Shown: in pieces, positions 9,483 through 40,722 of the stretch
How positions within the stretch are numbered: the stretch's first letter is position 1
Layout: each line of letters starts with the position of its first letter
From: an uncultured Desulfosarcina sp.
GTDB taxonomy: Bacteria > Desulfobacterota > Desulfobacteria > Desulfobacterales > Desulfosarcinaceae
Reading direction: 5' to 3'
DNA length: 64,000 nucleotides
Assembly: GCA_963674945.2 (NCBI GenBank)
Contig: CAXXWQ010000003.1
Span: forward strand, 960,001 to 1,024,000
Position numbers and translations under genes: made by a program
The notes under the pieces: model-generated
Database searches by the model: none
Told to the model about the DNA's origin: nothing
Seen by the model: the letters and a program-made list of their open reading frames with translations, nothing else

Positions 9483-10487
9483 TCATAATTCACGATCATT
9501 CATTCCATCTTGTGTCTCCCGGAAGATAGTAAATGACCTCTTCTTCCGACTAAGAACAACCAGCGTCTCATAGTGTATTACACCGGGCATATTGCCCAGG
9601 TCCTGAGCCACGAAATTGTGCATCTCACTTGTATTTTGATGGAATGACCATACCATGCAATCGAATGCACCAAAGGTTAGGGAAACCAATTTGACAGGTG
9701 GACGCCGCTTCAATTCATCGGTCAGCGTCTTCAGGTTGGATGGGTGGACTTTGATCAAGGTAATTCCACTGGTGGTGTACCCAAAGAATGCCGGATCAGG
9801 AATACAAATCGTCCGAACAATCTCTTGGTCATAAAGTTTAGACAAACTGAAGCGAACAGATGAAACACTGCCACCAATGACTTCGGCAAGTTCCTTTACG
9901 GATGCTCTTGGAAATTTTTCCAACCCTTTGATTACAGACAGGTCTAAGTCAGTTGGAGTGAAATCCAAGTGCGAAGAAGCAGGAGCATGATTCGTATGTG
10001 TCAAAACCGACCAACTCCTCTTAATCGACCTGGCCGATAACATTATCTCAACCCTTGCGTTTCCCAAAATACTGCCAATCTCAACGGGAAACAGCCTCAT
10101 ATACTCCTCGGGACTCCGGAATAAGGCAACTGCCAGAATATCATAACGTCCTGCAGTTAAACAAATGTATTTGGTTCTATTGATGGAGGCAAGTTGTCCT
10201 GCTATCGTGTTCACAGTTCCAGGAGCGGCATTGATTCCAAATACCACAAGGATTCTATAACCCAAAGCGACATGATCCGACAACGTGCCAATCAGGATGA
10301 CACCCGAGTCAACAAGCCTGTTCAGTCGTCTGCGCACAGTTGGCGGTGATGTGCCTAACTTTGAAGCAAGTGTTGCATAGCTCACCCGAGCGTCCTGTTC
10401 CAACTCTTTTACAAGCCTCGTATCCAACTCATCCAAGGCCGTTCGACTATTTTCAAAGCTTTCCATCAACGGCTTTTCCTCGATCAA
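9483..10487 (-). CDS. tandem (double) Lrp/AsnC transcriptional regulator
   Basis: Two HTH+RAM repeats (LDELDTRLVKELEQDAR..., TAGRYDIL; DLSVIKGLEKFPR..., TFGAFDC); divergent from the methyltransferase genes. Confidence 0.9.
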   Translation of the reverse strand: MIEEKPLMESFENSRTALDELDTRLVKELEQDARVSYATLASKLGTSPPTVRRRLNRLVDSGVILIGTLSDHVALGYRILVVFGINAAPGTVNTIAGQLASINRTKYICLTAGRYDILAVALFRSPEEYMRLFPVEIGSILGNARVEIMLSARSIKRSWSVLTHTNHAPASSHLDFTPTDLDLSVIKGLEKFPRASVKELAEVIGGSVSSVRFSLSKLYDQEIVRTICIPDPAFFGYTTSGITLIKVHPSNLKTLTDELKRRPPVKLVSLTFGAFDCMVWSFHQNTSEMHNFVAQDLGNMPGVIHYETLVVLSRKKRSFTIFRETQDGMNDREL

Positions 10488-10892
10488 TCGTCAATCTGCA
10501 GATATTCATAGCAATGTTGCTATGTAGCACATTATTTTGAATATCTTAACTAAAAAACCGCAGCGTATTATTTTGACCCCTTTTGCACCATTTTTTTCGA
10601 TCAATATGTTCTTTTTAAACATTTATAATGATATAATACATCATTTATAATTATTTGATATTTTTAACTTTAATTATCATACGTTTGTTTTTGATCATTT
10701 ATATATCATTTTCCAACATATTTTACTATTTATTTGTTTGACTTTGTTCTCTTTTTCGTACTATGAAACAGTTTGTGCCAAGCTGCGTCACGATACGAAC
10801 ACAAGCTGTTTGGCTTCATGTTGATGGTACAGGCACGCAGCGCAAAAAGACGTTTTCATACAACGGGTCTTTAACAAAAGGAGATTGCAAAC

Positions 10893-12134
10893 ATGGCAGA
10901 GGTAAAAATTGGACACATGGAAAATGCTCCATCCGACTGGTACGGCGTACCGCTGGAGGATCAGCATTTTGAGTGGAGTGTGGAGGAGGAACTGATCCTC
11001 AAGCGGTTGTGCGAAAAGATCGGCGAGAACTGTGAAGAGGAAGAGATGACGCCGATGGAGCGATTTCGGGCTACCTTCGAGAAGAAAGACAAGGACCGTC
11101 TTCACATCGAATGCAAGTACAATGTCCCGTATGCCGTTCGCTGTCTTGATTCCTGGGCGGACGCCATAAAGCCCGGTGACTTATATCAGCGGCCCAAGCT
11201 TCACATCATGGGTCATCTGGCCATGGCCGCGCGTTTCAAGCTGGATATCATCAACATTTACGTGATCCACTATACGGAAGAGTGCTGGGGCGGCAACGGG
11301 CGGATGATCGACTACGGGACCCCGCAGATGGTGGGCGAGCCGCCGATCAAGACGATGGAGGATTTGGAGAGCGTATTGCCGGCCGATCCGAAGAAGCACA
11401 GCCTGTATCCCGGATACCTCTGGGCGGCCAAAGAGATAAAAACGATCATGAAAAGATACGGTGTTGCCGATAAGTTGCCTGTGGAGCTGTCGTTCTGCGG
11501 AGATCCTTTGGGCACCATGTTTTTGGGCATGACCGGTTTTGGTCCCGGCACGGTGATGATGAAGAAAAATCCCGAGCTGTTCCAGGCGTGCATGTGGAAG
11601 GCGGCGGAGTTCCAGAAGGCATTCGGCAAGGCGTGCAAGGAGACCGGCCCGGATGGATTGTACATGTGCTCTTTCATGGGATCATTTCCTCCGAAGACGA
11701 AAAAACTGGACAATACGTTCATCATGGATGTGTATGCGGACGTGGGAAAGACGATCAAGTCTCATCTGGGCAAGGATATTCCCATGTGGCATACCCTGGG
11801 CGCAAACGGATGGGAACACTGGCAGGAGCATTACTATCCCCATGGCGCTGTCGGTCCGGGCAGTTTCGACGGCTGGTGGGTCGGCCCTGAGATGGATCCC
11901 GCCTTTATCCATGCCTATGCCAGGGAAAAGGATTTGTACTGCGGGTGCAGTGTGGATGACCATATCGTTCTGGATGGCGATTTTGACGCCGTGGAAGCGG
12001 AACTGAAAGTGCGCGTTGCCGAAGCCAAGAAATATCCCAAGCACTTCCAGGCCCTCGGTGTTCTCGACTACTGGACTCCCATGGAGTATGTGGACAAGCT
12101 GTTTGATATGACCAAGAAAATGGCAAGGTTCTAA
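10893..12134 (+). CDS. uroporphyrinogen decarboxylase-fold (MtaA/CmuA-like) corrinoid methyltransferase
   Basis: MTPMERF...DR start of the URO-D fold; directly upstream of corrinoid protein; AAAGGAG RBS. Confidence 0.75.
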   Translation: MAEVKIGHMENAPSDWYGVPLEDQHFEWSVEEELILKRLCEKIGENCEEEEMTPMERFRATFEKKDKDRLHIECKYNVPYAVRCLDSWADAIKPGDLYQRPKLHIMGHLAMAARFKLDIINIYVIHYTEECWGGNGRMIDYGTPQMVGEPPIKTMEDLESVLPADPKKHSLYPGYLWAAKEIKTIMKRYGVADKLPVELSFCGDPLGTMFLGMTGFGPGTVMMKKNPELFQACMWKAAEFQKAFGKACKETGPDGLYMCSFMGSFPPKTKKLDNTFIMDVYADVGKTIKSHLGKDIPMWHTLGANGWEHWQEHYYPHGAVGPGSFDGWWVGPEMDPAFIHAYAREKDLYCGCSVDDHIVLDGDFDAVEAELKVRVAEAKKYPKHFQALGVLDYWTPMEYVDKLFDMTKKMARF

Positions 12135-12176
12135 CCATTCTCAAGTCTATACCCAATAGTAAGGAGAAAAGAGCGA

Positions 12177-12827
12177 ATGTCTAAAGAGGAAATCCTTAAG
12201 AAATTAACGGAAGCCACCGTTGAGATCGAAGACGACGATGTAATGGATCTGGTCGACGAAGCGTTGGAGGCGGGCATGGATCCCATGGAGATCATCATCG
12301 AAGGGCTTCAACCGGGTCTGACCATCATCGGTGAGGGCTTCGATGCCCATACGCGATTCACCAGCGACCTGGTTCTGGCCGGCGAGCTGTTAAACGATGT
12401 GATCACCAGGTTGAAGCCGGTGATGGAAAAAGGATCCACGGGTGTGGGCCAGAACATGGTGATCGGCACGGTGGAAGGCGACGAGCACTGCGTGGGCAAG
12501 CGTGTCGTGGCCTCGGTGTTTACCGCGGCCGGTTACAATGTGATCGACATCGGTGAGAACCAGACGGCGGATGCCTTTGTCGCGGCGGCCAAGGAGTACA
12601 ATGCCAAGGTCGTTGGCGCTTCTGCGATTTTAGGCCCCCAGAAGCCGTACTGCAAGGTGATTCATGATGCGCTGGTGGAAGCGGGCATCAGGGACCAGGT
12701 GATATACATCATCGGTGGCTGGGGCATGACGCAGGAGTGGTGCGACAAGGTTTGCGCCGATGCCTATGGCGACACCGCCAATGAAGCCATCGAGAAAGTC
12801 AAGGCGATCGTAGCCGCCAGGGGGTAG
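12177..12827 (+). CDS. corrinoid (B12-binding) protein, MtaC/MttC family
   Basis: Cap domain, GTVEGDEHCVGK (DxHxxG), VGASA, IIGG, ADAYG. Confidence 0.95.
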   Translation: MSKEEILKKLTEATVEIEDDDVMDLVDEALEAGMDPMEIIIEGLQPGLTIIGEGFDAHTRFTSDLVLAGELLNDVITRLKPVMEKGSTGVGQNMVIGTVEGDEHCVGKRVVASVFTAAGYNVIDIGENQTADAFVAAAKEYNAKVVGASAILGPQKPYCKVIHDALVEAGIRDQVIYIIGGWGMTQEWCDKVCADAYGDTANEAIEKVKAIVAARG

Positions 12828-13508
12828 AAGGGTTACACTGGCAGCCTTGATTATTTGCTCTGTGTGGCATCAGCTGCGGAACCAAATCGGGGGGGCCGAT
12901 TTGTGCGGGCCGATTTTTTCAGTTCCTCCATAATGCTGCCGAGGGCGCTTATCCAGTTGGCCGCTATCGTATGTTTTAGTATTTTTAGCATTGGCTGACG
13001 CCTTCTCGACAAACCGTCCTTTGATGGCAGTTTTCATCAGATTCACTTCGCTTCGATTAGGCTCTCCCTCTCCCGGCACCATGTCTGGAAACATCTGTGA
13101 CAAGGTTCACGCCGGGAGGGGGAGGCCATTGCGGTAGATCTTTCCGGGTACTCCGTACAAAGTACCCACAGGATACGTCGCGGATAACATCTCTGGTGTT
13201 CTTTCCGGGATGTTTTCTTCCATATTAGTGTTCATTGTTCGATACCAGTTCCATTACTGCTATAGACTTTATTTTGAGCATGTATCTATTTTTCGCTCAA
13301 ACGTTCGTGGCTCATTCCCTCTCGGATGAATCCCGAAAGTTGAGTTTTAAGATATTTTCCAACTGATTACTACCCTGATCGTCATTATCATCCAGAGGGC
13401 AGATGATCTAAAGGTCGTAATGACATACGTTTCTAATTTATGCTTTCTGGTTGAAAATAAAAAAGTAAATGCAGAAAGATCATTGGATTTGAAAAGGAGA
13501 AAGACCGG

Positions 13509-13979
13509 ATGAAGAACATGTACGGCAAGGAACTCAAATTCCCTGAAGATCTCTATTATTCGGAAGAGTTTATCTGGGTCAAGGACCTGGGTGGAAACAA
13601 GGTTCAAATCGGTATTTCAGACCTTGGTGTCAAAGCGGTGAAGGAATTGGCGCATGTCAAGATCGTTGCCAAAGAGGGTGCGCAAATCACCAAGGGGAAG
13701 CCAGTCGGGCATGTGGAAACCAGCAAGGGGATCTGGGAGATCATCGCCCCCGTAAGTGGAACCGTAGCCGCGATCAATCCGCCCCTTACCAAGGGAAACG
13801 CCAATCCCATCCAGATGGATTCGTATGGCAAAGGCTGGGTGATGGAAGTTGAAACCGCCGATGACAGTGAAGTAAGGGCACTGAAGAAGGGGGCGGATGA
13901 GGATACCAAGGCATGGATCAACGAGATGATAGAAGAAAATGTGCCATTGATGGATGAAGACGAGGACGATGATGATTAG
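13509..13979 (+). CDS. gcvH: glycine cleavage H-like lipoyl-carrier protein, copy 1
   Basis: FPEDLYYS, VETSKG (lipoyl-Lys position), APVSG, YGKGW; acidic tail. Confidence 0.85.
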   Translation: MKNMYGKELKFPEDLYYSEEFIWVKDLGGNKVQIGISDLGVKAVKELAHVKIVAKEGAQITKGKPVGHVETSKGIWEIIAPVSGTVAAINPPLTKGNANPIQMDSYGKGWVMEVETADDSEVRALKKGADEDTKAWINEMIEENVPLMDEDEDDDD

Positions 13980-14029
13980 GTCGGCCATTACCGATTCGGA
14001 GAATTATAAAGAAAAGGGGTTACCATTAC

Positions 14030-14929
14030 ATGTTTGAATTCGCTACGGAACAGAAAGTATTCGATATCGCCGGCGTCAAAGTCGGCGGCAAGCCCGGAGA
14101 GAACCCTTCCGTCATGATCGGCAGCATGTTCTTCCGCGGTCACAAGATCGTCAAGGATACCGATAAAGGAATCTTCGATAAGGACAAAGCCAAGGCATTG
14201 CTGGACAAAGAAGAAGAATTGTCGCTGAGTACCGGCAATCCGCGCATCATCGATGTCATCGGAGATACCGGTGAGGCATTGATCAACTATATCGAGTGGG
14301 TGGCGGCCAATACCACCTCCCCCATCCTGGTGGATTCTGCGCTTCCCAAGGCACGGATGGAGGCCATCCGGCATTTTGCCGGAAGCGAGCTTATCCCCCG
14401 TCTGATCTACAATTCCATGGAGGGGCACTATAAAGAAGATGAAATGGAGTGTATCGCCGAATGCGGTATCAAGAGCGTGGTGATTCTTCCCCTGACCACC
14501 AAGGCGATCAAGCCGAAAGCCAGGTTCAAACTGCTCAAGGAGAACATGTATCCCGCGGCGAAGAAAGCCGGGCTGGAAAACTTTCTGATCGACCTTGGCA
14601 TACTGGATATCCCCAGCGTCGGTTGGGCCACCCAGGCCGCCCAGCTGGTGAAAAATGAGCTTGGTTTGCCGTGGGGCTGTGCACCATCGAACGCCATTTA
14701 TCTGTGGAAGAAACTGCGTGACCGCGGCACACCGGCCTTCGAAGCCACCGCATCCGTTGTTTACGCATTGCCGCTTTGCTGGGGGGGCAGCTTCATCTTT
14801 TACGGTCCGACCCGAAACGCAAAATGGTTTTATCCGGCGGCAGGGGCGGTGGATGCCATGCTGGCCTACGGCGGAATGAACATGGGGCTGCGACCCGGTC
14901 CGGATCACCCGCTGTTCAAAATATTTTAA
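14030..14929 (+). CDS. mtrH: MtrH/MtgA-family pterin methyltransferase
   Basis: EQKVFDIAGVKVGGKPGENP, GSMFFRGHKIV, IYNS, GCAPSN, YGP, HPLFKIF. Confidence 0.9.
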   Translation: MFEFATEQKVFDIAGVKVGGKPGENPSVMIGSMFFRGHKIVKDTDKGIFDKDKAKALLDKEEELSLSTGNPRIIDVIGDTGEALINYIEWVAANTTSPILVDSALPKARMEAIRHFAGSELIPRLIYNSMEGHYKEDEMECIAECGIKSVVILPLTTKAIKPKARFKLLKENMYPAAKKAGLENFLIDLGILDIPSVGWATQAAQLVKNELGLPWGCAPSNAIYLWKKLRDRGTPAFEATASVVYALPLCWGGSFIFYGPTRNAKWFYPAAGAVDAMLAYGGMNMGLRPGPDHPLFKIF

Positions 14930-15447
14930 GGGATTTCTGGCACTGCAAGGACGAAAAATCAATTACCGCACAACAAGGGATTGATTGCAACGGCTCAATA
15001 GCGCCTTTATACGCTTTGGTAAACATCCAACAATGCATATCCTGGCGCTATACTCGTTAATTGAGAGATAACTGCCGTTCCGCTGAATTCTATTCATTTT
15101 TTTACAAGCAATAACTTGTTGCGCCCATGAGACATATTGAACTGAAGCTAGGAATGAATGCGAACAGTTGAATGATCGGTATTTTTACCGTGCAGTAATC
15201 AAAGTCATTACCGGAAATGCTTGCGGCGGGGTGGGAGCCAAAAGCATGTTTTTGCAAAACGTGGTGACGAATCACGGTTACGGAGATCGATCGTTTACAA
15301 GGCGCCAAAAGAGAGGGGGTGATCATCTTTTTTTCAAATAGGGGCAGTCATCATTTTCCATGATGAATCCAGAGTTCTATCGAATTCTCATTCTGGAGAA
15401 ATCTGGGCGCTGATGTGGGATACCAACGCATACTCGAGGAGAGGAAG

Positions 15448-17001
15448 ATGAGGCATTTGAAAAGTCAAAGGAACATTTTGATAACGATGGCATGCATTCT
15501 TGGCGTGTTTTCGTTTCTTGGATCTGCGGATGCGGCGAAATGGTATTTGGGATCCGACACACAACTACTTATGGACGTTTCACTCACCTACGGGACTGGA
15601 ATAAGGGTGTCTGACCGGGACGCCGAATTACTGGCCGATGTCATCAAAGATGACAGCAACCGGAATTTCGACCAGTGGGACTTTTTCAACAACAAGATCA
15701 CCGCCCTTGCGGACATCGAATTCATCTATAAGGACTTTGGCGTATTCGTCCGGCCCAAGGCGTTTTATGACTATGTGTACATGTCAGACAACTCCAATGA
15801 CGGTTCCAGCAATGCCACCAACAGTGCCTATGTCGGCGGCCTCATCGATGAACCGGATCAATGGGCCGATGAGATCGAGGATATCCACGGCATGAACGCC
15901 GAAATCCTGGATCTTTTCGCATATTACGGATTCCGGCTGGGCGAAGTGCCCTTTGACCTCCGTGTGGGAAAACAGGTCATCGCCTGGGGCGAGAGCAGCT
16001 ACATTCCGGGCATGAATTCGGCCCAGGCCCCCATTGATGCTGCCGCCGCGGTCGCAGTGGGAACAGAGGTAAAAGAGATCTTTCTGCCCACGGGAGCGGT
16101 TTATCTTCAGACAGGCTTCTGGGATTTCGGACTGCGCGGTTACTATCAGTGGGAGTGGGAAAAAAACAGACTGATGGAAGGCGGGACCTTTCTTTCGTCT
16201 GCGGACATGCTCGATGAAATCAAGGCGCCCCTTATAGCAGAATTAGGACCAGGGGCCTATATAAACTTGCCTCGGATAAAGGATGATGAACCCAGAGACG
16301 ACGGACAGTTCGGTGTCGCGCTGTCATATATGCTGCCGTGGGCCGCAACGGAGATCGCGGGGTATTATCTCAACTATCACGAGAAGAGCCAGGCAATTAT
16401 AGATGCCGGTGCTACCGGGTATAAGATTATCTTTCCGGAAGACATCAAGCTGTATGGCTTCACCGTCAGTTCTGTGATCGGAGACACCCAGGTAGGCTTC
16501 GAAGTCACCTATCGAGACGACATCGTCTTCCAGGACGCCGAAGCACGGACGATTAATGAGGGTGGCTTCTGGCAGACACAGGCAAGTTTTACCTACCTCA
16601 AAAGCCCGGGATGGTTCAATGTGGCGGATCGAATTATCGTGTCCGGTGAAGCCGCGTACTGCGCCCAAGTCGACCTCAAGGGGATAGAGGGACGGCCGGA
16701 AGAAGGTATCGATGGGAGAGAGGAGGAAGGTTTCAAGTATGTCGCCGTACTCAATTTTGATTGGTTCCAGGTGCTGCAAAGAACGGATTTCGGCTTCAAC
16801 GTGAAATATTCCGAAATCCCCAAAGGGGACGATTATCTCAAACCGGTAGATTTTCAGGAAAATAAAAATGCCGTCTCCGTCGGTGTGGATATGGTTTTCA
16901 ATGATGTCTGGGAAGCCGATCTTACCTATGAAAACCGATTGCACAACAATGATCTATCGGATCGCGATACGATTTCCTTTAAACTGTCATACGCATTTTA
17001 A
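15448..17001 (+). CDS. DUF1302 family outer-membrane protein
   Basis: Signal peptide, DDSNRNFD, RVGKQVIAWGES, KEIFLP, YYQWEW, DRDTISFKLSYAF. Confidence 0.85.
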   Translation: MRHLKSQRNILITMACILGVFSFLGSADAAKWYLGSDTQLLMDVSLTYGTGIRVSDRDAELLADVIKDDSNRNFDQWDFFNNKITALADIEFIYKDFGVFVRPKAFYDYVYMSDNSNDGSSNATNSAYVGGLIDEPDQWADEIEDIHGMNAEILDLFAYYGFRLGEVPFDLRVGKQVIAWGESSYIPGMNSAQAPIDAAAAVAVGTEVKEIFLPTGAVYLQTGFWDFGLRGYYQWEWEKNRLMEGGTFLSSADMLDEIKAPLIAELGPGAYINLPRIKDDEPRDDGQFGVALSYMLPWAATEIAGYYLNYHEKSQAIIDAGATGYKIIFPEDIKLYGFTVSSVIGDTQVGFEVTYRDDIVFQDAEARTINEGGFWQTQASFTYLKSPGWFNVADRIIVSGEAAYCAQVDLKGIEGRPEEGIDGREEEGFKYVAVLNFDWFQVLQRTDFGFNVKYSEIPKGDDYLKPVDFQENKNAVSVGVDMVFNDVWEADLTYENRLHNNDLSDRDTISFKLSYAF

Positions 17002-17033
17002 AAAGTCATTGTAAAAGGGGAAAGGAGAGCTCA

Positions 17034-18501: not shown

Positions 18502-18675
18502 GCGAAGTCACTTGGAATTTCCCCACGAACGAACCTGAACTGACGACATGAAAAATTTCCCACGTACCCTCTAAAGGTTGAACCATAAACGACCAATAAC
18601 CTTTACAGAGACCAGACGTTTGTTTATCGTGGATCATAAATGATCAGTGTCAAAAAGGAATACACTGAGGAGACC

Positions 18676-21237: not shown

Positions 21238-21408
21238 TAGTGTCTATCCAGAAATAGGCAAATTTGGTCGAGATCAAGGCGCACGAAAAATTTTACCGCA
21301 GGTGCCCGAAGGAAATACCCTTGGGGTGCATATGGTTGATATTCCGAGGATAAAATTTTTCGCGCAACGCGGATATCGGGCAAATTGGCCATTTCTGGAT
21401 GGGTACTA
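21238..21408. mobile_element. MITE/REP-like palindromic element, copy 1
   Basis: Imperfect terminal inverted repeats TAGTGTCTATCCAGAAATAGGCAAATTTG / CAAATTGGCCATTTCTGGATGGGTACTA; near-identical copy at about 46856. Confidence 0.8.
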
Positions 21409-21409
21409 G

Positions 21410-23061: not shown

Positions 23062-25581
23062 CTACATGGCGTGTTCCGTCCGGGTGATGATTTCGTCCCG
23101 TACTTCCGGCGTCAGCTCGATCCAGTAAGCACTGTATCCCGCAACCCGTACCACCAGGTCCTGGTAATTCTCCGGATGGGCTTTGGCATCCAGAAGGGTT
23201 TTTCTGTTCAAAATATTCAGCTGCAACTGGGATCCGCCCTTGGCAAAAAAAGTGCTAAGCAAGGCGGCAAACTTCTGCTTGCCCTCATTGCTTCCAAGAA
23301 CGCCGGCGGAAAACTTCATGTTCATCAGTGAGCTCTCCATGCCCATCATGTCACATTTCGCCGATGAATTCATCACGGCCGTGGGACCGTTCTTGTCGCA
23401 GCCGCGAACGGGTGACAACGACCCGTCGGCCAGGGGTTCCCCCTTCTTCTTCCCGTTTGGCAGCGCTCCGGTTTCTGCGGCAACCCACTGGGCCCACGCG
23501 GCGCCCTGACGGAAGAGTCTGGGCGGACGGCCAAGGATGTCACGATAGGAGAGTGCCTCGTCCCGGGTCCAGGACCAGATATGCGCCATCAGTTCGTCGG
23601 GCTCTTCCAGGTCGTTGCCGTACTTGGGATAATCCATCAGTCTTTTCCGCAGTTCCTCATGCCCCTCGAAATCCGCCTTGAGCGCCGCGAGAAGTTCGTC
23701 CATGGTGCAGATCTTGTCTTCGAACACCGCATGCTTGATCGCGATCAGAGAATCGGTGGTGTCCGGAAAGGCCCGGTCCACGAAGGAGCCGCCCTCCAGC
23801 TGCATGGCGGTCGTGCAACCATGATGGTTGCAGTCCTTGCCGCTCTCGACGCAGCCTTCCAGCCAGGCCGAGGCGATCGGCATATAGGCTTCGCCGGTGC
23901 CGTCGCAATGCCTGTCTCCATCATTTCCCAGGTTCATGTGGAAGGCGTAATGGTGCTTCACCTGTGTCTTGTAGGCTTCCAGAACCTCATCGAAGGTCGT
24001 AAATTCTCTCGGGTCTCCCGTGTCCGTTCCCAGTTTGAACCCGGAATCCGGATCCACGCCCCGATTGAGCGCCATCTGGAGCAGTTTGCCGTGATGCACG
24101 AATCCGGGCCCCGGTCCCATGCCCCAGTTGAAGGTCTTGCAGATACCGGTATTCACACAGCCGGCCATGGACCAGTCCCGCGCCTCTTCATGGGGAACAC
24201 CGCGACTCATCAGGTACTCCATGTTGTTGCGGTCGTTGAACCAGGCCGGGATGCCTGCGCCGTGATTCTTGTTGCACTCGATGGCCGCATCCAGAAATTC
24301 CGGTTTCATGGCGTGGTGATAGCGAATGGAGATGTGCGGCTGGTGCGTCCTGAGCTGGCCTGCCACGTGCAACACCATACAACCCCACTCATTGGAGCAG
24401 TCTCTGCCCCTCCGGTCGATTCCGCCCAGGGTGACGTTGACGATGTAGTTGGCCTGGGCCACCGCCTGATGGTCCCGCCGGCCCGCAAGCCCCGTGAACA
24501 GAAAAGGCTCCAGCGAATCCCAGAATACGAAGATGTTCCCCATCAGTTCCGCCGCTTCCTGGCGACTCATGCGGCCTTCGTTGATGTCCTTCATGTAAAA
24601 CGGGAACAGGTACTGATCGAAACGGCCGGCGTAATGGTTGGAGATGGCCTTTTCCATGTCGTGTACCACCGGTATGAACCAATAGGCCTGCAGCGCTTCC
24701 CTGAAGGTCCGCGGCGGATTTTCGGACACCCATTCGCACACATCGCCGATCTCTTTCAGCTCTTTCTTTCTGGTGGCGTTCTTTTCTTTCTTCGCCAGCT
24801 TGCGCGCCGCTTCGGCGTGACGCTTGATGAATACCGAAAACCCCTTCTGGCCGATGACAAAGGATTCCAGAACCTTGATCTTGTCCGTGTCCTCCAGCGT
24901 GATCTTAGCCCCTTTGCGCTTGATTTCGGATATCCGCTCTTCGATTTCGGCGATGATGCCGTTGATCCCGATCTTCAGGTACTTCTCGAAGTCGCAGCCC
25001 ACGACCAGCGGGGTGTGTTCGCCCATCTGCAGAACGCCGCCCATGTTGAGCTTGGCCTGACCCATCTGATTTCTCTTTTCGCCGCCAAAGGCCACATTGG
25101 CCGCATGGCGTTTCTTGCCCAGACCCATGGCATCCCAGTATGTGGCCGCGGCACGGATGTCCTCGATGGTTTCGTCGGTGAGTTCGGCGTCCTGCTCCTC
25201 GCTGCCGGCGCTGGCCATCTTGTCCCGGTACTCCAGGATCATCAGTATCATTTCCGGGCCAAAGGTGTGGCCCGGATAGGCACCGCGATTGTAAGGCGTC
25301 GGCTTGCCCACGATCAGCTCGCCGTCCCGGATGACGATGGGCATCTTGGCCATGAGATTGGCTTCGCCCTTGGCTTTCCGAATCGCCGGATGCTCGCCCT
25401 CGGTTTCCCTGTAGGATTCCAGCCAGTATCTGGCCCTTTCGCCGGCGATGTGAACGCCGTCTTCCCTTACCCTGTTCTTGAGCATCTTGATCCGGTCGGT
25501 GAAGCCGTTGGTCTTGTAGACCTCTTCCAGATGGATCACCCGTGGATCAACCTTCGGTTCTTTGCTTTTTGAAGCGGCCAT
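23062..25581 (-). CDS. glycyl radical enzyme (PFL-like family), paralog 1
   Basis: VRVAGYS glycyl loop, AGCVN Cys loop, GRFDQYLFPF, PKYGND. Confidence 0.95.
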   Translation of the reverse strand: MAASKSKEPKVDPRVIHLEEVYKTNGFTDRIKMLKNRVREDGVHIAGERARYWLESYRETEGEHPAIRKAKGEANLMAKMPIVIRDGELIVGKPTPYNRGAYPGHTFGPEMILMILEYRDKMASAGSEEQDAELTDETIEDIRAAATYWDAMGLGKKRHAANVAFGGEKRNQMGQAKLNMGGVLQMGEHTPLVVGCDFEKYLKIGINGIIAEIEERISEIKRKGAKITLEDTDKIKVLESFVIGQKGFSVFIKRHAEAARKLAKKEKNATRKKELKEIGDVCEWVSENPPRTFREALQAYWFIPVVHDMEKAISNHYAGRFDQYLFPFYMKDINEGRMSRQEAAELMGNIFVFWDSLEPFLFTGLAGRRDHQAVAQANYIVNVTLGGIDRRGRDCSNEWGCMVLHVAGQLRTHQPHISIRYHHAMKPEFLDAAIECNKNHGAGIPAWFNDRNNMEYLMSRGVPHEEARDWSMAGCVNTGICKTFNWGMGPGPGFVHHGKLLQMALNRGVDPDSGFKLGTDTGDPREFTTFDEVLEAYKTQVKHHYAFHMNLGNDGDRHCDGTGEAYMPIASAWLEGCVESGKDCNHHGCTTAMQLEGGSFVDRAFPDTTDSLIAIKHAVFEDKICTMDELLAALKADFEGHEELRKRLMDYPKYGNDLEEPDELMAHIWSWTRDEALSYRDILGRPPRLFRQGAAWAQWVAAETGALPNGKKKGEPLADGSLSPVRGCDKNGPTAVMNSSAKCDMMGMESSLMNMKFSAGVLGSNEGKQKFAALLSTFFAKGGSQLQLNILNRKTLLDAKAHPENYQDLVVRVAGYSAYWIELTPEVRDEIITRTEHAM

Positions 25582-25634
25582 TTTACCTTCCCCCCATTGT
25601 ATTGTTTTCTGGACATCGCTGACGATTTAAATGA

Positions 25635-25663
25635 ATTTTATCAAGCGTCTATCAGACTGTCAA
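25635..25663 (-). promoter_or_regulatory. sigma70 promoter of GRE paralog 1
   Basis: TTGACA-N17-TAAAAT on minus strand. Confidence 0.75.
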
Positions 25664-25873
25664 TAAATAAGTCCCCGATTTTTATATTTTGATAGCTAAG
25701 TTTATTTTAAACTACCAAACATTGATTTTTTTTGCCCATGCGATCAATCTTTTGGCTTTTTTTCATCTTTCCGTTCTTCCTGGTAAATTGTTTTGACAGA
25801 TAATTGATGAGGCCCTACAAATCAGTTACCATTCAATGTGACGAAGATCAACATATTTGGCTTATGCTCATAT

Positions 25874-26443
25874 TGAAAGATCGTTTTGATTAGCGGTGAA
25901 AGCGGCACCGGCAAGGGGTTGTTGGCGCGATTGATTCATGACTGGAGCCCCCGAACGGGAAGGCCCTTCGTTACCGTCGATTGTGCCGCACTTCAGGAAA
26001 ACCTTCTGGAAAGCGACCTGTTCGGCCATGTCAAAGGTGCATTCACCGGTGCACTTCGGGACAAGGAAGGCAAACTCAAGACGGCTGAAGGAGGAACCGT
26101 ATTCCTCGACGAGGTACCCGGGGGGGACAATCTCGCAAACCTCAACAAAGCCATATGATATGTCCAGCAAAATGAGCATACCAACCGTCTCAAGGTCGTC
26201 ACGGTAATCAGCGAGCATGGAAAAGTTGCGCCGAATCTTCAACGGGACCTCGATATGCTTAATGAAACCTACCCCAATATCGACATCGAGTTGGTCATTC
26301 AATCCGGTAAATTCGGACCCGAAATGATCGATGCGCTTTCCCAAAAATGGCGCATCCCTACGAATCTGATGTTCATCGGTTCTCCAGGCAACCATTTCCT
26401 GTATGGTCTTGCCGAACTGGGGGGCGTTCGCCTCATCATCTGA
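25874..26443 (+). pseudogene. chimeric remnant: sigma54-activator AAA+ fragment joined to amino-acid permease C-terminus
   Basis: GESGTGK...[15 protein letters not shown]...FLDEV switches to [19 protein letters not shown]...FGPEMI...FIGSPG...GGVRLII in the same frame, with internal TGA. Confidence 0.7.
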
Positions 26444-26804
26444 TTGACCGGAAGATTATCTTCAGATTCCTTGCAGAATCATGGCCGATACCGAGCCCGA
26501 TCACCGGCAGCGCGAGTGGTTTTTTCCACACGGCCGGCTGGCATCGGACCTCTTGGCATTCGTGACGCGGTTGCGGATCTCCACAGCCCCCATTTTTATA
26601 TTTTTTGATATATAATTTGATTTATTTTGCGCTAAATATTAAGATAAAGTTTAAATTTATCATATTTTGACGGTTTTTTTGAAATCAGTTTCTATTTCCT
26701 GTGAAGTGATGATGATTCTGAAAAGCAAGATTTGAAAGACCAGGAACATATACATAAATTTATCGATTTTCATGCTGCTTGACCCAAATGAAAAAGGGAC
26801 ATGA

Positions 26805-27734
26805 ATGCCACTCGATACGCTTGACCAGACGCTCATCAAATTACTTAAAGTCGATGCCAGACAGCCGATTCAAACGCTTGCGAACAAGTTGGGAATAAAA
26901 AGCGCAACCGTCCGCTATCGTCTAAATCGGCTGATCGATGAGGGGATTATAAAGATCGCCTGCGTAACCAACTCCCAGGTTCTGGGGTATCGTTCTCTAG
27001 TCGTGATTGGCATCAATGTTTCACCAGGCAAGGCAGAAGCCGTCGCCAGCCAACTGGCACCGATGAGGGATGTTCGATCCGTATTTCTGACTGCTGGCCG
27101 GTTTAGCATCTTGGCATGGATTCTTTTTCGGGATCAGTCGGACCTGGGAGATTTTGTTTCGGAGGATTTGCCAGGCATATCCGACATCACGGATGTCGAA
27201 ATTATGAACTCTTATCGTTGGACGCAGTATTCCTGGAGTTTTTCCGCGTGTCAAAAAGAATACACCCAAAATGACCTTACCAGACTGGAACTGTCCATTA
27301 TCAGTGCGATGCGAGAGGCTCCCAGACAAAGCATCACCAAGCTTGCCCAAACCGTTGGGTGCAGCAGGGCGGTAGCAAAAGCAACGTTAGAAAAATTAAT
27401 TAAGGATGGAATCGTCAAGTTCAACGCGTTTCTAGACCCAACGAATATCGGTTACGATACGGGGGTAGCCATCTTCATCAAGTCCCAACCAGACAAAATC
27501 GACGCTGTCGCCAAAAAATTGTCCGCAGAAAATACAGAAACGCACGTGAACCTGATTTCCGGTCAATGGCATATCTATTTCAGAGGTCATTTTCGAAGTA
27601 GTAATCACCTGCAGAGCTTCTTGGTAGATACATTGGCAAACATACCGGGCGTCATCGCCTTTGATGTTGTCCATCTGATAAAAACGCTGAAATACTCCGT
27701 GAAATACTTCTTTAGCCCCCTTGATCTGGCCTAG
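26805..27734 (+). CDS. tandem Lrp/AsnC regulator (with GRE paralog 1)
   Basis: Two HTH+RAM repeats; highly similar to 31272..32201. Confidence 0.9.
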   Translation: MPLDTLDQTLIKLLKVDARQPIQTLANKLGIKSATVRYRLNRLIDEGIIKIACVTNSQVLGYRSLVVIGINVSPGKAEAVASQLAPMRDVRSVFLTAGRFSILAWILFRDQSDLGDFVSEDLPGISDITDVEIMNSYRWTQYSWSFSACQKEYTQNDLTRLELSIISAMREAPRQSITKLAQTVGCSRAVAKATLEKLIKDGIVKFNAFLDPTNIGYDTGVAIFIKSQPDKIDAVAKKLSAENTETHVNLISGQWHIYFRGHFRSSNHLQSFLVDTLANIPGVIAFDVVHLIKTLKYSVKYFFSPLDLA

Positions 27735-27995: not shown

Positions 27996-28322
27996 TTACT
28001 TCCCTGCAGCCATTTTCTCCAAAAGAGCCTTTTTACAAACGGCTTCCGCCGGCTTGTAACTCCCCGCCCCGAATTCCCACCAGGTGCCGACATCTGTGAA
28101 TCCCAATTCCGCCGCTTTGTTGATTACGGCCTCGGCAGCACCGGTATCCTCGGAATAGGGCGTCAACTCGCTCCAGATGCTGTCTCCAGACGGATCGAGG
28201 AATCGTTCCGTATCGCCGATGATCTCATCGGCGGCAACCTCGTGACCCATCAGTTCTTTGGCCACCATCATGTTCAGTTCTCTTCCGGGCTTCATTTCGA
28301 GTATTTGGTTTTCTGTCATCAT
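27996..28322 (-). CDS. hypothetical protein resembling Phage ABA sandwich (BC1872-like) domain
   Basis: GRELNMMVAKELMG...PYSEDTGAA...PAEAVCKKAL; GGAGG RBS. Confidence 0.6.
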   Translation of the reverse strand: MMTENQILEMKPGRELNMMVAKELMGHEVAADEIIGDTERFLDPSGDSIWSELTPYSEDTGAAEAVINKAAELGFTDVGTWWEFGAGSYKPAEAVCKKALLEKMAAGK

Positions 28323-28456: not shown

Positions 28457-30973
28457 CTACATGGCATGTTCCGTGCGGGTGATGATCTCGTCCCGGACTT
28501 CCGGCGTGAGTTCGGTCCAGTAGGCACTGTAACCTGCAACCCTGACGACAAGGTCTTGATAGTTTTCCGGATGCGCCTTGGCATCCAGCAGGGTCGCCGT
28601 GTTCAGGATATTCACCTGGACCTGGGAACCGCCCTTGGCAAAGTAGGTGTTCAGCAGGGCTGCAAATTTCTGTTTGCCCTCTTTGGAACCGAGTACGCCG
28701 GCGGAGAACTTCATGTTGAGCAGCGTACTCTGCATGCCCATGGTGTCGCATTTGGATGCAGAATTCAAAACGGCCGTCGGTCCGCTCTTGTCGTAACCCC
28801 GGACGGGAGACAGGGAACCGTCCGCCAATGGCTCACCAAGCTTCTTGCCGTTGGGCAGGGCGCCCGTCGACGCGGCCACCCACTGGGCCCACGCAGCGCC
28901 CTGTCGGAAGAGTACGGGGGCACGATCGTGCTCATCCCGATACTCCAGCGCCCGGTCCCGGGTCCAGGTCCAAAGGTGGGCCATCATTTCATCGGGCTCT
29001 TCCAGGTCGTTGCCGTATTTGGGATAGTCCATCAGCTTTTTGCGCAGTTCTTCATAGCCTTCGAAGTTGGCTTCCAATGCTTTCAAAAGTTCGTCCATGG
29101 TGCAGATCTTCTCTTCGAATACCGCATACTTGATCGCCATCAGACTATCGGCCGTATCCGAAAGGGCACGATCCACGAAATGCCCGCCTTCGATCTCCTT
29201 GCAATACCGGGTGCCGCCGCGACTCAGATCCTTGCCCCTTTCAATGCACCCGTCTATCCATGCAGAAGCGAACGGCATATAGGCCATCAACTGATCGAAA
29301 TGGGGCTCCATCGCCGCGTACAGATTCATGTGAAAATCATAGTTGAACATGACCTGCTCTTTGTATGCCGCCACAACATCCTCGAAGGTCGCAAATTCCC
29401 GCGGATCTCCGGTGTCGGGCCCCAGTTTCATCTTGGAATCCGGATCCACCCCGCAGTTCAGCGCCATCTGAAGCAGTTTGGCGTGATGCACGAATCCGGG
29501 GCCGGGTCCGTGACCCCAGGCCCAGGCCTTGCCGATGGCGGTATTCACACAGCCGGCCATGGACCAATCCCGGGCTTCTTCATGGGGTACGCCACGGCTC
29601 ATCAGCCACTCGATATTGTTGCGGTCATTGAACCAGGCCGGAATGCCCGCGCCGTGGTTCTTGTTGCACTCGATGCACGCATCCAGAAACTCCGGCTTCA
29701 TGGCGTGATGATAACGGATCGAGATATGCGGCTGATGGGTCTTGAGCTGCCCGCCCACATGCAGCACCAGGCAGCCGAACTCATTGGAGTTGTCCCTTCC
29801 CCTTCGGTCGATTCCGCCGAGGGTGACATTGACGATGTAGTTGGCCTGGGCCACCGCCTGATGGTCGCGCCTGCCGGCAAGCCCCTGGAACAGAAAGGGC
29901 TCCAGCGAATCCCAGAACACATAGATATTGCCCATCAGTTCCGCCGCTTCCTGGCGGGTCATGCGGCCTTCGTTGATGTCTTTCATGTAAAACGGAAACA
30001 GGTACTGATCGAACCTGGCAGCATAATGGTTGGATATGGCCTTTTCCATGTCATGGGCCACGGGGATGAACCAGTAGGCCTGCAGGGCCTCGCGGAATGT
30101 GCGCGGCGGATTGGTGGCGATCCATTCGCAGACATCACCGATCTCTTTCAGTTCCTTCTTCCTTGTTGCGTTCTTTTCCTTGGCCGCCATCTCCCGGGCC
30201 ACTTCGGCATGGCGCTGGATAAAGCGAATGAACCCTTTCTGGGCGATGATCATCGCTTCGAGCATCTTGATCTTGTCATTGTCCTTGGCCGTGGTCTTCA
30301 TCCCCTTTTTCCGGATTTCGCCGATTCGATCTTCGATCTCGGCGATGATGCCGGGCACACCGATGCGAAGGTACTTGTCGAAATCGCAACCCAGCACCAG
30401 CGGGCTGACCTCCCCGACGGGCTGTACGCCGCCCATGTTGACCTTGGACGCACCGAACTTGTTTCTCAGCCCGTCGCCAAAGGCCATGCCGATTTCATGG
30501 GCCTTTCTGTTGAGCCCCATCTTGGCCCAGTATTCGGCTGCCTTCTTGATATCCTCCAGGGCCTCATCGGTGAGCCCGGCGTCCTGGGATTCGCTGCCGG
30601 CACTGGCCATCTTTTCCCGGTGTTGAATGATCATCAGGGTCTGTTCCGGCGCCGAACTGTGATTGGCGTATGCACCCCGGTTGTAGGGCGTTGGTTTGCC
30701 CACGATCAGTTCGTTGTCACGGATGACGATGGGCACCTTTTCAAAGAGGTTGGCCTCGGCCTTGGCCCGCCGGATGGCCGGATGCTTGCCCTCGGTCTCC
30801 AGGTAGGATTCGAGATGATACTTGGCCCTTTCACCGGCGATGTGAACGCCATCTTCCCTCACCCTGTTCTTGAGCGCCTGAATCCGCTCTGTGAGACCGT
30901 TGGTCTTGTACACCGCATCCAGATTAATCGTATTCGGACCAACCTTTGGTTCATTCGTTTTCGCAGTCGCCAT
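28457..30973 (-). CDS. glycyl radical enzyme, paralog 2
   Basis: VRVAGYS and AGCVN; start at ATG 30973 (GGAGG RBS, aligns with paralog 1, promoter overlaps the longer start). Confidence 0.95.
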   Translation of the reverse strand: MATAKTNEPKVGPNTINLDAVYKTNGLTERIQALKNRVREDGVHIAGERAKYHLESYLETEGKHPAIRRAKAEANLFEKVPIVIRDNELIVGKPTPYNRGAYANHSSAPEQTLMIIQHREKMASAGSESQDAGLTDEALEDIKKAAEYWAKMGLNRKAHEIGMAFGDGLRNKFGASKVNMGGVQPVGEVSPLVLGCDFDKYLRIGVPGIIAEIEDRIGEIRKKGMKTTAKDNDKIKMLEAMIIAQKGFIRFIQRHAEVAREMAAKEKNATRKKELKEIGDVCEWIATNPPRTFREALQAYWFIPVAHDMEKAISNHYAARFDQYLFPFYMKDINEGRMTRQEAAELMGNIYVFWDSLEPFLFQGLAGRRDHQAVAQANYIVNVTLGGIDRRGRDNSNEFGCLVLHVGGQLKTHQPHISIRYHHAMKPEFLDACIECNKNHGAGIPAWFNDRNNIEWLMSRGVPHEEARDWSMAGCVNTAIGKAWAWGHGPGPGFVHHAKLLQMALNCGVDPDSKMKLGPDTGDPREFATFEDVVAAYKEQVMFNYDFHMNLYAAMEPHFDQLMAYMPFASAWIDGCIERGKDLSRGGTRYCKEIEGGHFVDRALSDTADSLMAIKYAVFEEKICTMDELLKALEANFEGYEELRKKLMDYPKYGNDLEEPDEMMAHLWTWTRDRALEYRDEHDRAPVLFRQGAAWAQWVAASTGALPNGKKLGEPLADGSLSPVRGYDKSGPTAVLNSASKCDTMGMQSTLLNMKFSAGVLGSKEGKQKFAALLNTYFAKGGSQVQVNILNTATLLDAKAHPENYQDLVVRVAGYSAYWTELTPEVRDEIITRTEHAM

Positions 30974-31025
30974 TTCTTTCCTCCCATTGTTGTGTTTTTT
31001 TGAACATCGCCTGAGTTCTGGGGTA

Positions 31026-31054
31026 ACAATATCCATCGTATTTCAATATGTCAA
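31026..31054 (-). promoter_or_regulatory. sigma70 promoter of GRE paralog 2
   Basis: TTGACA-N17-TATTGT; shares TTATTTATTGACA with promoter of paralog 1. Confidence 0.7.
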
Positions 31055-31271
31055 TAAATAACTTTTAATTTTTTAATTTTGACATCTTTACTTAATCATT
31101 ATCTCTTTTCTTTAATCAATGTTGCCAATTATATCATTTTTTGATTTTTGCAACTTATCTGCCTTTCCATGAGATCGTATTTTTCAAAGATTACAATTTG
31201 ACATTTTGGTCAATTATACGTAAGTTCTCGTTTTTTTATGGTGATTGATCCAAATCAAGAAAAGGAAATGC

Positions 31272-32201
31272 ATGGCACTCGATAACTTCGACCATCTGCT
31301 CATCAAACGAATCAAAGCGGATGCCAGACAGCCGATTCAGACACTTGCCAACAAATTGGGGCTTAAAAGCGCAACGGTCCGTTACCGCCTAAATCGACTG
31401 ATCGATGATGGTATCTTGAAAATAGCCTGCGTTACCAACTCCGAAGTTTTGGGATATCGTTCTCTTGTTGTGATAGGAATCAAGGTTTTTCCAGGGAAGG
31501 CCGAAGCCGTAGCCAACCAACTGGCGCCGCTGCCGGAGGTTCGATCGGTCTTTGTGACCGCAGGCCGCTTTAACATTCTGGCGTGGATGCTGTTTCGGAA
31601 CCAATCGGACTTGGGAAACTTTGTTTCGGAGGATTTGCCGGGCATTGCCGACATTACGGATGTGGAAATTATGAACTCCTATCGATGGGAACCGTATTCA
31701 TGGAGTTTTTCCGAGTCCAAAAAGGAATTCACGCAAAGCGATCTTAGCAAACTGGAATTGTCAGTGGTCAGGGCGATGCGGGAGGCTCCCAGACAAAGCA
31801 TCACCAAACTGGCCCAAACCGTTGGCTGTAGCAGGGCTGTGGCAAAAGCCACACTGGAAAAGCTCACCAATGATGGAATCGTCAAGTTCAACGCCTTTGT
31901 CGATCCCACCAGCATTGGATACGATACCGGTGTTGCCATCTTCATCAAGGCGCAACCAGACAAAATCGACGCCGTTGCCAAAAAGTTGTCCAAAGAAAAT
32001 ACGGAAACGCACGTGAACCTGATTTCCGGTCAATGGCACATCTATTTCAGGGCGCATTTTCAAGACAGTGAGCACCTGCAGAACTTCTTGTTAAACACGC
32101 TGGCGGGCATACCGGGCGTCGTAGCATATGATGTTGTTCATCTGGTAAGAACAGTGAAATTCTCCGTGAAATACTCCTTCAGCCCCCTCGACCTGGCATA
32201 G
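31272..32201 (+). CDS. tandem Lrp/AsnC regulator (with GRE paralog 2)
   Basis: Paralog of 26805..27734; divergent from the GRE. Confidence 0.9.
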   Translation: MALDNFDHLLIKRIKADARQPIQTLANKLGLKSATVRYRLNRLIDDGILKIACVTNSEVLGYRSLVVIGIKVFPGKAEAVANQLAPLPEVRSVFVTAGRFNILAWMLFRNQSDLGNFVSEDLPGIADITDVEIMNSYRWEPYSWSFSESKKEFTQSDLSKLELSVVRAMREAPRQSITKLAQTVGCSRAVAKATLEKLTNDGIVKFNAFVDPTSIGYDTGVAIFIKAQPDKIDAVAKKLSKENTETHVNLISGQWHIYFRAHFQDSEHLQNFLLNTLAGIPGVVAYDVVHLVRTVKFSVKYSFSPLDLA

Positions 32202-40709: not shown

Positions 40710-40722
40710 CGTCTTTCCTCCT

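Follow-up and report, generated by a model that had tools for sequence, protein, structure and literature searches.

The 64,000-nucleotide stretch of DNA analysed here (the window), from an uncultured Desulfosarcina sp., carries between positions 9483 and 32201 two sets of genes transcribed towards each other. The first, the methyltransferase (MT) arm, encodes a corrinoid methyltransferase system with a GcvH-like lipoyl carrier; the second encodes two glycyl radical enzymes (GREs) and a predicted activase. The original prediction joined them into one catabolic route, in which radical cleavage yields or acts on a methylated compound whose methyl group enters one-carbon metabolism. This account examines both arms and their relatives elsewhere, and weighs one pathway against two modules. 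Gene calls are based on Pfam and NCBIfam scans and an open reading frame listing, and were compared with the 7.08 Mb genome. This consists of four contigs, two of which are referred to as C3 and C4. Both scans bore out the gene content predicted for 9483-32201, the divergent double Lrp/AsnC regulator of the MT arm and of each GRE, and the convergence of the arms, which meet at 19868/19941. The predicted ‘FMN-binding protein’ is a PNPOx-like protein. An SCP2 gene, also named in the predicted set, is absent from 9483-32201; an SCP2-like gene lies instead at 59685-60035. The genes of the two arms are as follows.

10893-12134, plus strand: URO-D-family methyltransferase, predicted substrate:corrinoid methyltransferase (MT1); PF01208 over residues 54-408, E 2e-8
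12177-12827, plus strand: corrinoid protein with B12-binding_2 and B12-binding domains (PF02607, PF02310)
12896-13493, no strand: spacer between mosaic patches 1 and 2 (see below); homology to C4 stops at 12895 and restarts at 13494
13509-13979, plus strand: GcvH-like lipoyl carrier with putative lipoyl lysine K73 and an acidic C-terminal tail; PF01597, 73 bits
14030-14929, plus strand: MtrH-family methyltransferase, predicted methyl-corrinoid:tetrahydrofolate methyltransferase (MT2); PF02007, 238.8 bits
15415-17001, plus strand: DUF1302 protein; PF06980, 355 bits
17034-18416, plus strand: DUF1329 (LolA-like) protein; PF07044, 322 bits
21410-21832, minus strand: PNPOx-like FMN-binding protein, directly downstream of the activase; PF01243, 66.3 bits
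21838-22803, minus strand: GRE-activating radical SAM enzyme with a ferredoxin-like insert; TIGR02494, 362 bits (cutoff 174)
23062-25581, minus strand: GRE1, of the Cys-x-Asn clade (C475, N477); PFL-like and Gly_radical domains
27996-28322, minus strand: orf108, a small protein (about 108 amino acids) downstream of GRE2 that recurs with clade GREs
28457-31036, minus strand: GRE2, a second Cys-x-Asn GRE, of another subclade than GRE1; PFL-like and Gly_radical domains

The MT arm has the components of a methyl-transfer module, as had been predicted. The URO-D-family protein scores 34.1 bits on PF01208 (cutoff 23.9), which places it in a known methyltransferase fold, and its AlphaFold2 model is confident (predicted local distance difference test score 94.1). 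It matches no NCBIfam model, a PDB sequence search returned no relative, and a protein atlas look-up gave generic URO-D clusters only. The translation of the corrinoid protein reads D-E-H-C-V-G, the DxHxxG motif of corrinoid components; on TIGR02370 it scores 154.9 bits, which is under the cutoff. For the MtrH-like protein, MtgA is the closest NCBIfam model (385.7 bits, cutoff 550), and the MtrH family model gives 277 (cutoff 287).

The GcvH-like protein falls below the GcvH equivalog cutoffs (84.9 vs 117 and 64.6 vs 115.85). Its K73, invariant in 34 homologs, aligns with the lysine of the VESTK stretch in a solved GcvH, which we take to be the lipoyl lysine, and the protein is predicted to be lipoylated. 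Membership of a glycine cleavage system is not indicated; in addition to the low GcvH scores, neither the window module nor the related C4 operon described below has an annotated GcvP or GcvT gene, although no genome-wide search was made. A reductive activator of the RACo/RamA type is likewise absent from the window.

A fuller version of the MT arm is found on C4. This parent operon (693816 to 678027, minus strand) comprises, in order, repeated URO-D/corrinoid genes, SCP2-like, GcvH, MtrH and RACo genes, a dihydrolipoyl-dehydrogenase-type flavoprotein (Lpd), the lipoate ligase LplA and a LipA-like lipoyl synthase. C4 holds two identical RACo genes (665738-667573 and 681188-683023). Window DNA at 10900-12895 (patch 1) matches two tandem C4 copies with 99.75% identity, that at 13494-14929 (patch 2) matches C4 683163-684599 with 98%, and, by sliding identity, about 15430-17010 (patch 3, DUF1302) agrees with C4 708.9-710.5 kb at roughly 100%. 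The sequences that separate the patches are not shared with C4, and neither are lrpA (the regulator gene) and the DUF1329 gene, which are diverged. Identity in the DUF1329 gene drops to 65-83% at the DNA level, and its product is 63% identical in amino acids to the C4 copy; the genome has 14 DUF1329 paralogs. In place of the spacer at 12896-13493, the C4 operon has further MT1/corrinoid genes and the SCP2-like gene. Recent copying would produce such a pattern, and so would gene conversion into an older paralogous operon; the diverged DUF1329 fits the latter.

A mosaic of stretches of 1.4-2.0 kb with 98-100% identity to C4 could also arise as an assembly artefact from near-identical repeats. 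This is scarcely credible, since the unitigs of three public runs span each boundary between unique and repeated sequence in the MT arm as well as both unique spacers, although the runs may be those of the assembled sample (two of the three come from one sample, possibly the assembly's own). Unitigs across 12845-13543 bridge both junctions of the first spacer, and unitig depth fits two to three copies.

The genome contains 15 URO-D genes and three MtrH genes, the latter 99-100% identical; there are thus many MT1 paralogs and few MT2. Cys259 of the window MT1 is kept in 30 of 31 aligned homologs. Five URO-D paralogs (C4:690454-691707, C4:686995-688248, C4:655746-656993, C3:263002-264252 and C4:2158790-2160040) contain a single in-frame TGA that aligns with this cysteine, and hairpins begin 16-20 nucleotides past the TGA. 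Two tRNA-SeC genes are located on C3. These paralogs are likely selenocysteine-containing corrinoid methyltransferases. Pyrrolysine was dropped as a reading of the split genes because the stop is TGA, not TAG.

The MT module also exists in other genomes. Among 300 other genomes of the order, the URO-D family occurs in two (G090 and G220), which belong to another family. Contig C195 of G220 carries GcvH-MtrH-LplA-LipA-URO-D-Lpd-RACo with 45-60% identity. In G090 the genes lie on two contigs, MtrH-LplA-LipA-URO-D-Lpd on one and URO-D-corrinoid-GcvH-MtrH on the other. In both lineages Lpd adjoins RACo and GcvH adjoins MtrH. When 29 MtrH loci of the order outside this genome were compared, a GcvH gene was adjacent in one only, that of the closest MtrH (58% identity). 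URO-D and GcvH-like homologs seem to lie on common contigs in two more cases, as judged by equal contig sizes (7311 and 17636). The closest URO-D homologs are Chloroflexota proteins (71% and 59%). No GRE or activase gene was found in the eight loci from G090 and G220 (122 kb); the GREs of these genomes lie on other contigs, are only 31-32% identical, and do not belong to the clade of GRE1 and GRE2.

The closest known MT systems are the three-component systems of the Mto type, with MtoB as MT1, MtoC as corrinoid protein, the MtrH-like MtoA as MT2 and MtoD as activator (PMC8630106), and those of bacterial O-demethylases, including MtgABC of Desulfitobacterium. In common with these are a substrate-specific MT1, a DxHxxG corrinoid protein, a predicted MT2 of the MtrH family and a RACo-type activator, here encoded in the C4 operon. 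The differences are the addition of GcvH-like and SCP2-like proteins, Lpd, LplA and LipA, the in-frame TGA at the conserved cysteine of some MT1 paralogs, the MtrH score below the MtgA cutoff, and an MT1 that matches neither NCBIfam nor the PDB. A second point of comparison is provided by lipoate-binding-protein systems with their own lipoylation genes, the sHdr-LbpA type. As in these, a GcvH-like protein with a conserved lipoyl lysine occurs beside dedicated LplA-type ligases and lipoyl synthases, and CCG-domain (HdrD-like) proteins adjoin further GcvH-like genes on C4. Unlike in both these systems and glycine cleavage, the annotated genes of the two sets, window module and C4 operon, include no Hdr-like complex (nor GcvP or GcvT, as stated above); here the lipoyl protein is partnered by corrinoid methyltransferases and RACo. 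A literature search found no paper on a lipoyl-linked corrinoid methyltransferase operon, nor one joining the two arms. In PMC11291895, MtrH, MttB-like, corrinoid and gcvH genes of Asgard archaea are reported near each other and left unexplained.

Sets of FAD_binding_4, CCG/Fer4, GcvH-like, FAD_binding_4 and CCG genes recur beside URO-D/corrinoid genes at C4:695761-707304, C4:659234-665408 and C3:264639-272579. Beyond the C4 695-707 kb set come two radical SAM genes and the genes of an LplA-B/DUF116 protein and an FAD_binding_3 flavoprotein. Together these sets look like a second, dedicated lipoyl-protein system.

In the scheme proposed for the MT module, the URO-D MT1 would transfer a methyl group from the substrate to Co(I) of the corrinoid protein and the MtrH-like MT2 would hand the methyl group to tetrahydrofolate; both assignments follow family membership. 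RACo, Lpd, LplA and LipA would act in trans from the C4 parent operon. Lipoyl-GcvH may cycle between disulfide and dithiol forms with Lpd and NAD(H), most likely feeding electrons to RACo, where they would serve the ATP-dependent repair of Co(II) to Co(I). A direct role of GcvH with MtrH is an alternative, because GcvH adjoins MtrH in both lineages in the same way as Lpd adjoins RACo. To our knowledge, the cellular electron source for reductive activators of corrinoid proteins is poorly defined. An operon, conserved in two families, that joins RACo to a lipoyl protein and an E3-type dehydrogenase and brings its own lipoylation genes provides a testable answer to this question of corrinoid repair.

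The second arm centres on GRE1 and GRE2, which are 77% identical. With 458 and 490 bits on PF02901 and 95 and 99 bits on PF01228, both belong to the GRE superfamily; the glycyl motif RVAGYSAYW is present and C475 is invariant. Relative to the motif given in PMC13450708, the fingerprint Gln is replaced by Arg in both proteins. The two remain under every NCBIfam equivalog cutoff (HpsG 442.5 vs 1000, HypD 437.9 vs 1100, CutC 399 vs 1050), and all scores on the named equivalogs (CutC, HypD, HpsG, HpfG, IAD, HPAD and PFL) are less than half of the cutoff. The subfamily model TIGR01774 (PFL2/glycerol dehydratase) gives 485 and 506 (cutoff 678). Among solved structures, the best relatives are CutC, glycerol dehydratase, propanediol dehydratase and HypD, all about equally distant.

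A diagnostic feature is the loop that carries the catalytic cysteine. Both GREs read Gly-Cys-Val-Asn, whereas 1,2-eliminases and isomerases of the superfamily keep a CXE motif (2026 review, PMC13450708). In an alignment of five solved GREs, the residue at Cys+2 is Glu in four (HplG, HypD, 8IOF and glycerol dehydratase) and Leu in the arylacetate decarboxylase AAD (7E7L), which reads Cys-Val-Leu. The Cys-x-Asn loop argues against base-assisted 1,2-elimination. A reading of GRE1 and GRE2 as ordinary 1,2-eliminases, for example choline-lyase-like enzymes releasing a methylamine that the corrinoid system then demethylates, is favoured by the best PDB and NCBIfam scores, which are those to CutC, glycerol dehydratase, HypD and HpsG. 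The fold, the glycyl radical domain, the single loop cysteine and an activase with a ferredoxin-like insert are also shared with this group (CutC, glycerol/propanediol dehydratase, HypD, IslA, HpsG, HplG, YbiW and PflD). Nevertheless, such a function is very improbable given the Cys-Val-Asn loop, the low equivalog scores and an MT1 that is of the URO-D family rather than the MttB type. The Arg in place of the fingerprint Gln is another difference from this group.

Some of the arylacetate decarboxylases (HPAD, IAD, PAD and AAD) likewise have no Glu at Cys+2. In phenylacetate decarboxylase (PAD), whose catalytic cysteine we take to be residue 482, Gln484 would be an amide at Cys+2, like the Asn here. 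According to section 5.4 of PMC13450708, Gln484 is catalytically essential in PAD. The loci of clade homologs also carry LysR regulators and Amidohydro_2 decarboxylase-family genes. Unlike these decarboxylases, GRE1 and GRE2 have no small subunit, identity is only about 30%, and the neighbours of clade GREs are rich in coenzyme A (CoA)-ester enzymes, which known decarboxylase loci do not need.

A tree and motif comparison of the 120 best database homologs and the 10 GREs of the genome shows that all homologs with 41% or more identity to GRE1 group in a single clade (67 rows, Shimodaira–Hasegawa-like support 99), characterised by Gly-Cys-[Val/Ile]-Asn on the loop. Within it, the Cys+2 residue is Asn in 64 and Asp in three; outside it, this position is variable. 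Eight of the genome's GREs are members, five of them close (75-100% identical) and three at 41-42%. GRE1 is 96% identical to the copy at 752 kb on C4, and GRE2 is sister to C4_3083 and stands near the Chloroflexota proteins P0008 and P0009. The closest homologs are Chloroflexota proteins (76% and 70%). The idea that GRE1 and GRE2 arose by recent tandem duplication was dropped, since in the tree each has its own Chloroflexota sisters. At E<=1e-150, neither 300 further genomes of the order nor 400 of the phylum yielded a clade member (2-3 candidates scored per genome), and a contig scan with GRE1 gave one unrelated match (32%). Both GREs are of an uncharacterised type. In PMC13450708 (section 7), whole GRE clades are described as having no assigned function. 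A more distant GRE at C3:2604431-2606842, 32-35% identical to GRE1, contains one in-frame TGA and is either a selenocysteine protein or a broken gene.

The activase fits TIGR02494 and lies below the equivalog cutoffs for the HypD, CutC and HpsG activases. Of the four activases in the genome, that of the window is the only close one; the other three are 43-44% identical to it. The window activase is the predicted source of the glycyl radical in GRE1 and GRE2, and probably in three more close paralogs; the PNPOx-like flavoprotein may donate electrons to it. The genome has three copies of orf108, each adjoining or at most 5 kb from a clade GRE (two at C4:3078677-3079424), and a homolog in a metagenome locus (L026:4752-5054) is 46.5% identical and matches Phage_ABA_S at 28.5 bits. 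The three genome copies and one metagenome copy examined all occur near clade GREs only; orf108 is a possible accessory protein.

Further indications come from the neighbourhoods of clade GREs. A metagenome scan kept 80 loci, four of which (L023-L026, spanning 5.2-13.5 kb) hold GRE homologs of 48-51% identity. Their flanks, according to Pfam, encode LysR regulators in three of the four, Amidohydro_2 proteins in two, and PNPOx (L023), CoA-transferase III and an AMP-binding ligase in one each; a MaoC-like hydratase, DUF4037 and DUF4125, the orf108 homolog and activases are also found. At C4 3.05-3.09 Mb, two close GRE paralogs lie among DUF1302/DUF1329/BNR/MMPL genes, short-chain dehydrogenases/reductases, a CoA ligase, CoA-transferase III, enoyl-CoA hydratases, a thiolase with a DUF35-type OB-fold partner, FAD_binding_2, DUF4125/DUF4037 and two orf108 copies. 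At C4 727-755 kb, three more GREs accompany an AMP-binding ligase, an HpaB-family protein, FAD_binding_2, an old yellow enzyme-type reductase, FadL/TodX and two activases. These neighbours point to products of clade GREs that enter CoA-dependent beta-oxidation-type routes.

Within the same loci, the C4 3.07-3.09 Mb set (CoA-transferase III, enoyl-CoA hydratases, short-chain dehydrogenases/reductases, and thiolase with DUF35-type OB fold) is reminiscent of the gene set for benzylsuccinate beta-oxidation (bbs), so that GRE1 and GRE2 could be hydroalkylases like the X-succinate synthases (benzyl-, alkyl- and limonenylsuccinate), with the beta-oxidation-type genes beside their paralogs processing a succinate adduct. 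The DUF4125/DUF4037 pair is consistent with this, as it corresponds to LrcL/LrcM, expressed from the limonene ring-cleavage (lrc) operon of a hydrocarbon pathway (PMC12583861). On the other hand, TutD and MasD give the weakest matches but one class among solved GREs (246-279 bits, compared with 389-398 for CutC). The four gaps flanking GRE1 and GRE2 hold no frame of at least 25 codons with at least four Cys, and thus no sign of the small Cys-rich BssB/BssC-like subunits of X-succinate synthases. A true X-succinate synthase type is therefore distinctly unlikely. In the scheme proposed for the GRE module, the Cys-x-Asn GREs may run a non-eliminase reaction, decarboxylase-like or hydroalkylase-like, on hydrophobic acids or hydrocarbons, and their products would pass into the CoA-dependent routes mentioned above. 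With its diagnostic loop, its conserved partners (orf108, PNPOx, DUF4125/DUF4037 and CoA enzymes) and eight copies in one genome, which seems to be present in public sequencing runs filed under one organism label, the Cys-x-Asn clade is a tractable entry to new radical chemistry on hydrophobic substrates.

Whether the two arms form one pathway can be judged from the way they occur elsewhere and from the region that separates them, which contains the following features.

18640-19008, plus strand: PilZ-like protein, borderline (21.7 bits, cutoff 22.5)
19284-19868, plus strand: CxxCxxCC protein (Pfam)
19941-21191, minus strand: aldo/keto reductase fused to a 4Fe-4S dicluster domain (PF00248 and Fer4_9)
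21233-21412, no strand: hairpin repeat resembling a miniature inverted-repeat transposable element (MITE), between the aldo/keto reductase and PNPOx genes; fold energy -79.7 kcal/mol

The case for a single route would be as follows: a hydrophobic compound, methoxylated or methylated in another way, is taken up via DUF1302/DUF1329 and demethylated by the MT arm, which sends the methyl group to tetrahydrofolate, and its skeleton is cut or rearranged by GRE1 and GRE2, or these steps take place in reverse order. MtrH and GRE1 are only 8 kb apart in the window. An association of DUF1302/DUF1329 with hydrophobic substrates, as had been proposed, is backed by PMC13101534, which ties such substrates to a DUF1329/YCF48-related/MMPL cluster. 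The SCP2-like gene of the parent operon and the FadL/TodX gene near the C4 GREs fit hydrophobic substrates too.

The wider distribution of the genes argues against it. In G090 and G220 the MT module is conserved together with RACo, Lpd, LplA and LipA and without a clade GRE. Conversely, a check of GRE neighbourhoods found no MT-module genes in any of the four metagenome loci (tblastn) or at the two C4 loci at 3.06-3.09 Mb. Chloroflexota GRE and URO-D proteins lie on different contigs, of 30, 27 and 48 kb. For 12 clade clusters outside this genome whose longest contig is at least 30 kb, none matches any listed URO-D/GcvH-like cluster in contig size, which is an indirect proxy of limited sensitivity. 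Within the window, transcription of the arms is convergent, and the PilZ-like, CxxCxxCC, aldo/keto reductase and PNPOx genes and the MITE-like repeat intervene between DUF1302/DUF1329 and the activase. The PilZ-like and CxxCxxCC genes have no paralogs beside any other GRE or MT locus of the genome. The make-up of the MT arm as a mosaic of near-identical C4 copies weakens the single route further.

Proximity itself carries little information. When the six loci of the 10 GREs and the 30 MT-module genes were placed at random (20,000 trials), at least one GRE locus came to lie 15 kb or less from an MT gene in 23% of placements, and at least two lay within 50 kb in 14%. GRE/MT proximity is thus not clearly beyond chance. 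For annotation in general, adjacency alone is weak pathway evidence in genomes with many paralogous catabolic islands.

Since each gene set recurs elsewhere without the other, they are read here as two separate modules, likely neighbours through a lineage-specific juxtaposition rather than as parts of one conserved pathway; a probability of about 60% is given to this reading. Each module is novel individually, and direct coupling between them is unproven. The GRE module would act on a different substrate from that of the MT module, probably a hydrophobic carboxylic or hydrocarbon-like one. The compounds that the two modules serve probably form a single broad class, hydrophobic and possibly methoxylated.

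Several observations weigh against a separation into two modules. Accession numbering suggests that both rare families share two Chloroflexota metagenome-assembled genomes: in one series the GREs MFC1924366 and MFC1925505 are near the URO-D protein MFC1925276, and in a second MFC2018289 is near MFC2018176, one being a GRE and the other a URO-D protein. A second, looser co-location exists in this genome, where just 34-60 kb separate the large MT island of C4 from three GREs. A single family of regulators stands beside both kinds of operon. More distant MT genes would escape in the external GRE loci because these are so short. The high identity to C4 could be the result of gene conversion into an old resident operon and not of recent arrival, and the GRE substrate as well as the roles proposed for GcvH and Lpd are read from gene context alone. 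In spite of these points, and with the arguments from distribution, intervening genes and chance proximity on the other side, one pathway is considered unlikely.

A more far-reaching interpretation, speculative and held with little confidence, sees the modules as undescribed halves of one anaerobic network for methoxylated hydrophobic lignin or terpenoid compounds, exchanged between Chloroflexota and this bacterium. One half would be a lipoyl-protein-dependent corrinoid methyltransferase system with NADH-driven corrinoid reactivation via the lipoyl arm, made up of URO-D MT1s (some with selenocysteine), SCP2-like, GcvH-like and MtrH proteins, RACo, Lpd, LplA and LipA. The other would be a Cys-x-Asn class of non-eliminase GREs, with eight copies and one closely related activase.

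The regulators of the two arms, which belong to one family, are the following.

9483-10487, minus strand: LrpA, predicted regulator of two Lrp/AsnC units (HTH_24, HTH_AsnC-type and AsnC_trans_reg in two stretches), divergent from the MT arm
26805-27734, plus strand: LrpB, predicted double Lrp/AsnC regulator (Pfam), divergent from GRE1
31245-32201, plus strand: LrpC, predicted double Lrp/AsnC regulator (Pfam), divergent from GRE2

LrpB and LrpC are 82% identical, LrpA and LrpC 34%. The genome encodes 21 double-Lrp paralogs, which flank GRE, MT, FAD/CCG and DUF1329 loci alike. In the proposed mechanism, the arms would have in common this regulator family and the DUF1302/DUF1329 envelope proteins. 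A promoter and terminator scan found such sites in numbers no higher than in shuffles, and a scan of the window against Rfam (gathering scores) and for tRNAs gave no family and no tRNA. The best match of the region and one further feature pair outside it are listed here.

25635-25663, minus strand: best sigma-70-like match of the region (11/12 plus TG), 54 nucleotides upstream of the GRE1 start
59685-60551, plus strand: SCP2-like gene (59685-60035) and second GcvH-like gene (60042-60551), outside 9483-32201; the same pair occurs in the C4 operon

The latter pair has 81.5% DNA identity to its C4 counterpart and no methyltransferase genes alongside; its GcvH-like protein is 86% identical to the first one of the window. 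The GRE1-LrpB intergenic region contains a 1.1-kb stretch (25622-26749) without counterpart between GRE2 and LrpC. A frame of 175 codons within it (orf175, 25868-26395) was rejected as a gene, as it matches no Pfam or NCBIfam family.

PanB enzymes use a folate-bound one-carbon unit; two ketopantoate-hydroxymethyltransferase-family (PanB-like) genes adjoin a GRE activase at C4:745621-748339. The MITE-like element, about 180 nucleotides with long terminal complementarity, occurs 65 times in the genome, on all four contigs, and 54 of these copies reach 150 nucleotides or more; further copies in the window are at 46857-47022 and 58091-58245. Upstream of the cluster, a phage-type integrase is encoded at 2423-3571, GC content is low (38%) at 2-4 kb, and a 730-amino-acid protein with C39 peptidase and succinylglutamate desuccinylase/aspartoacylase domains is encoded at 5256-7448. 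Downstream, an operon at 38256-43755 encodes a large FlpD/MvhD-domain Fe-S protein, a 2Fe-2S/4Fe-4S protein, a NuoF-like flavoprotein and a NuoE-like thioredoxin-like ferredoxin, with a sigma-54 activator alongside.

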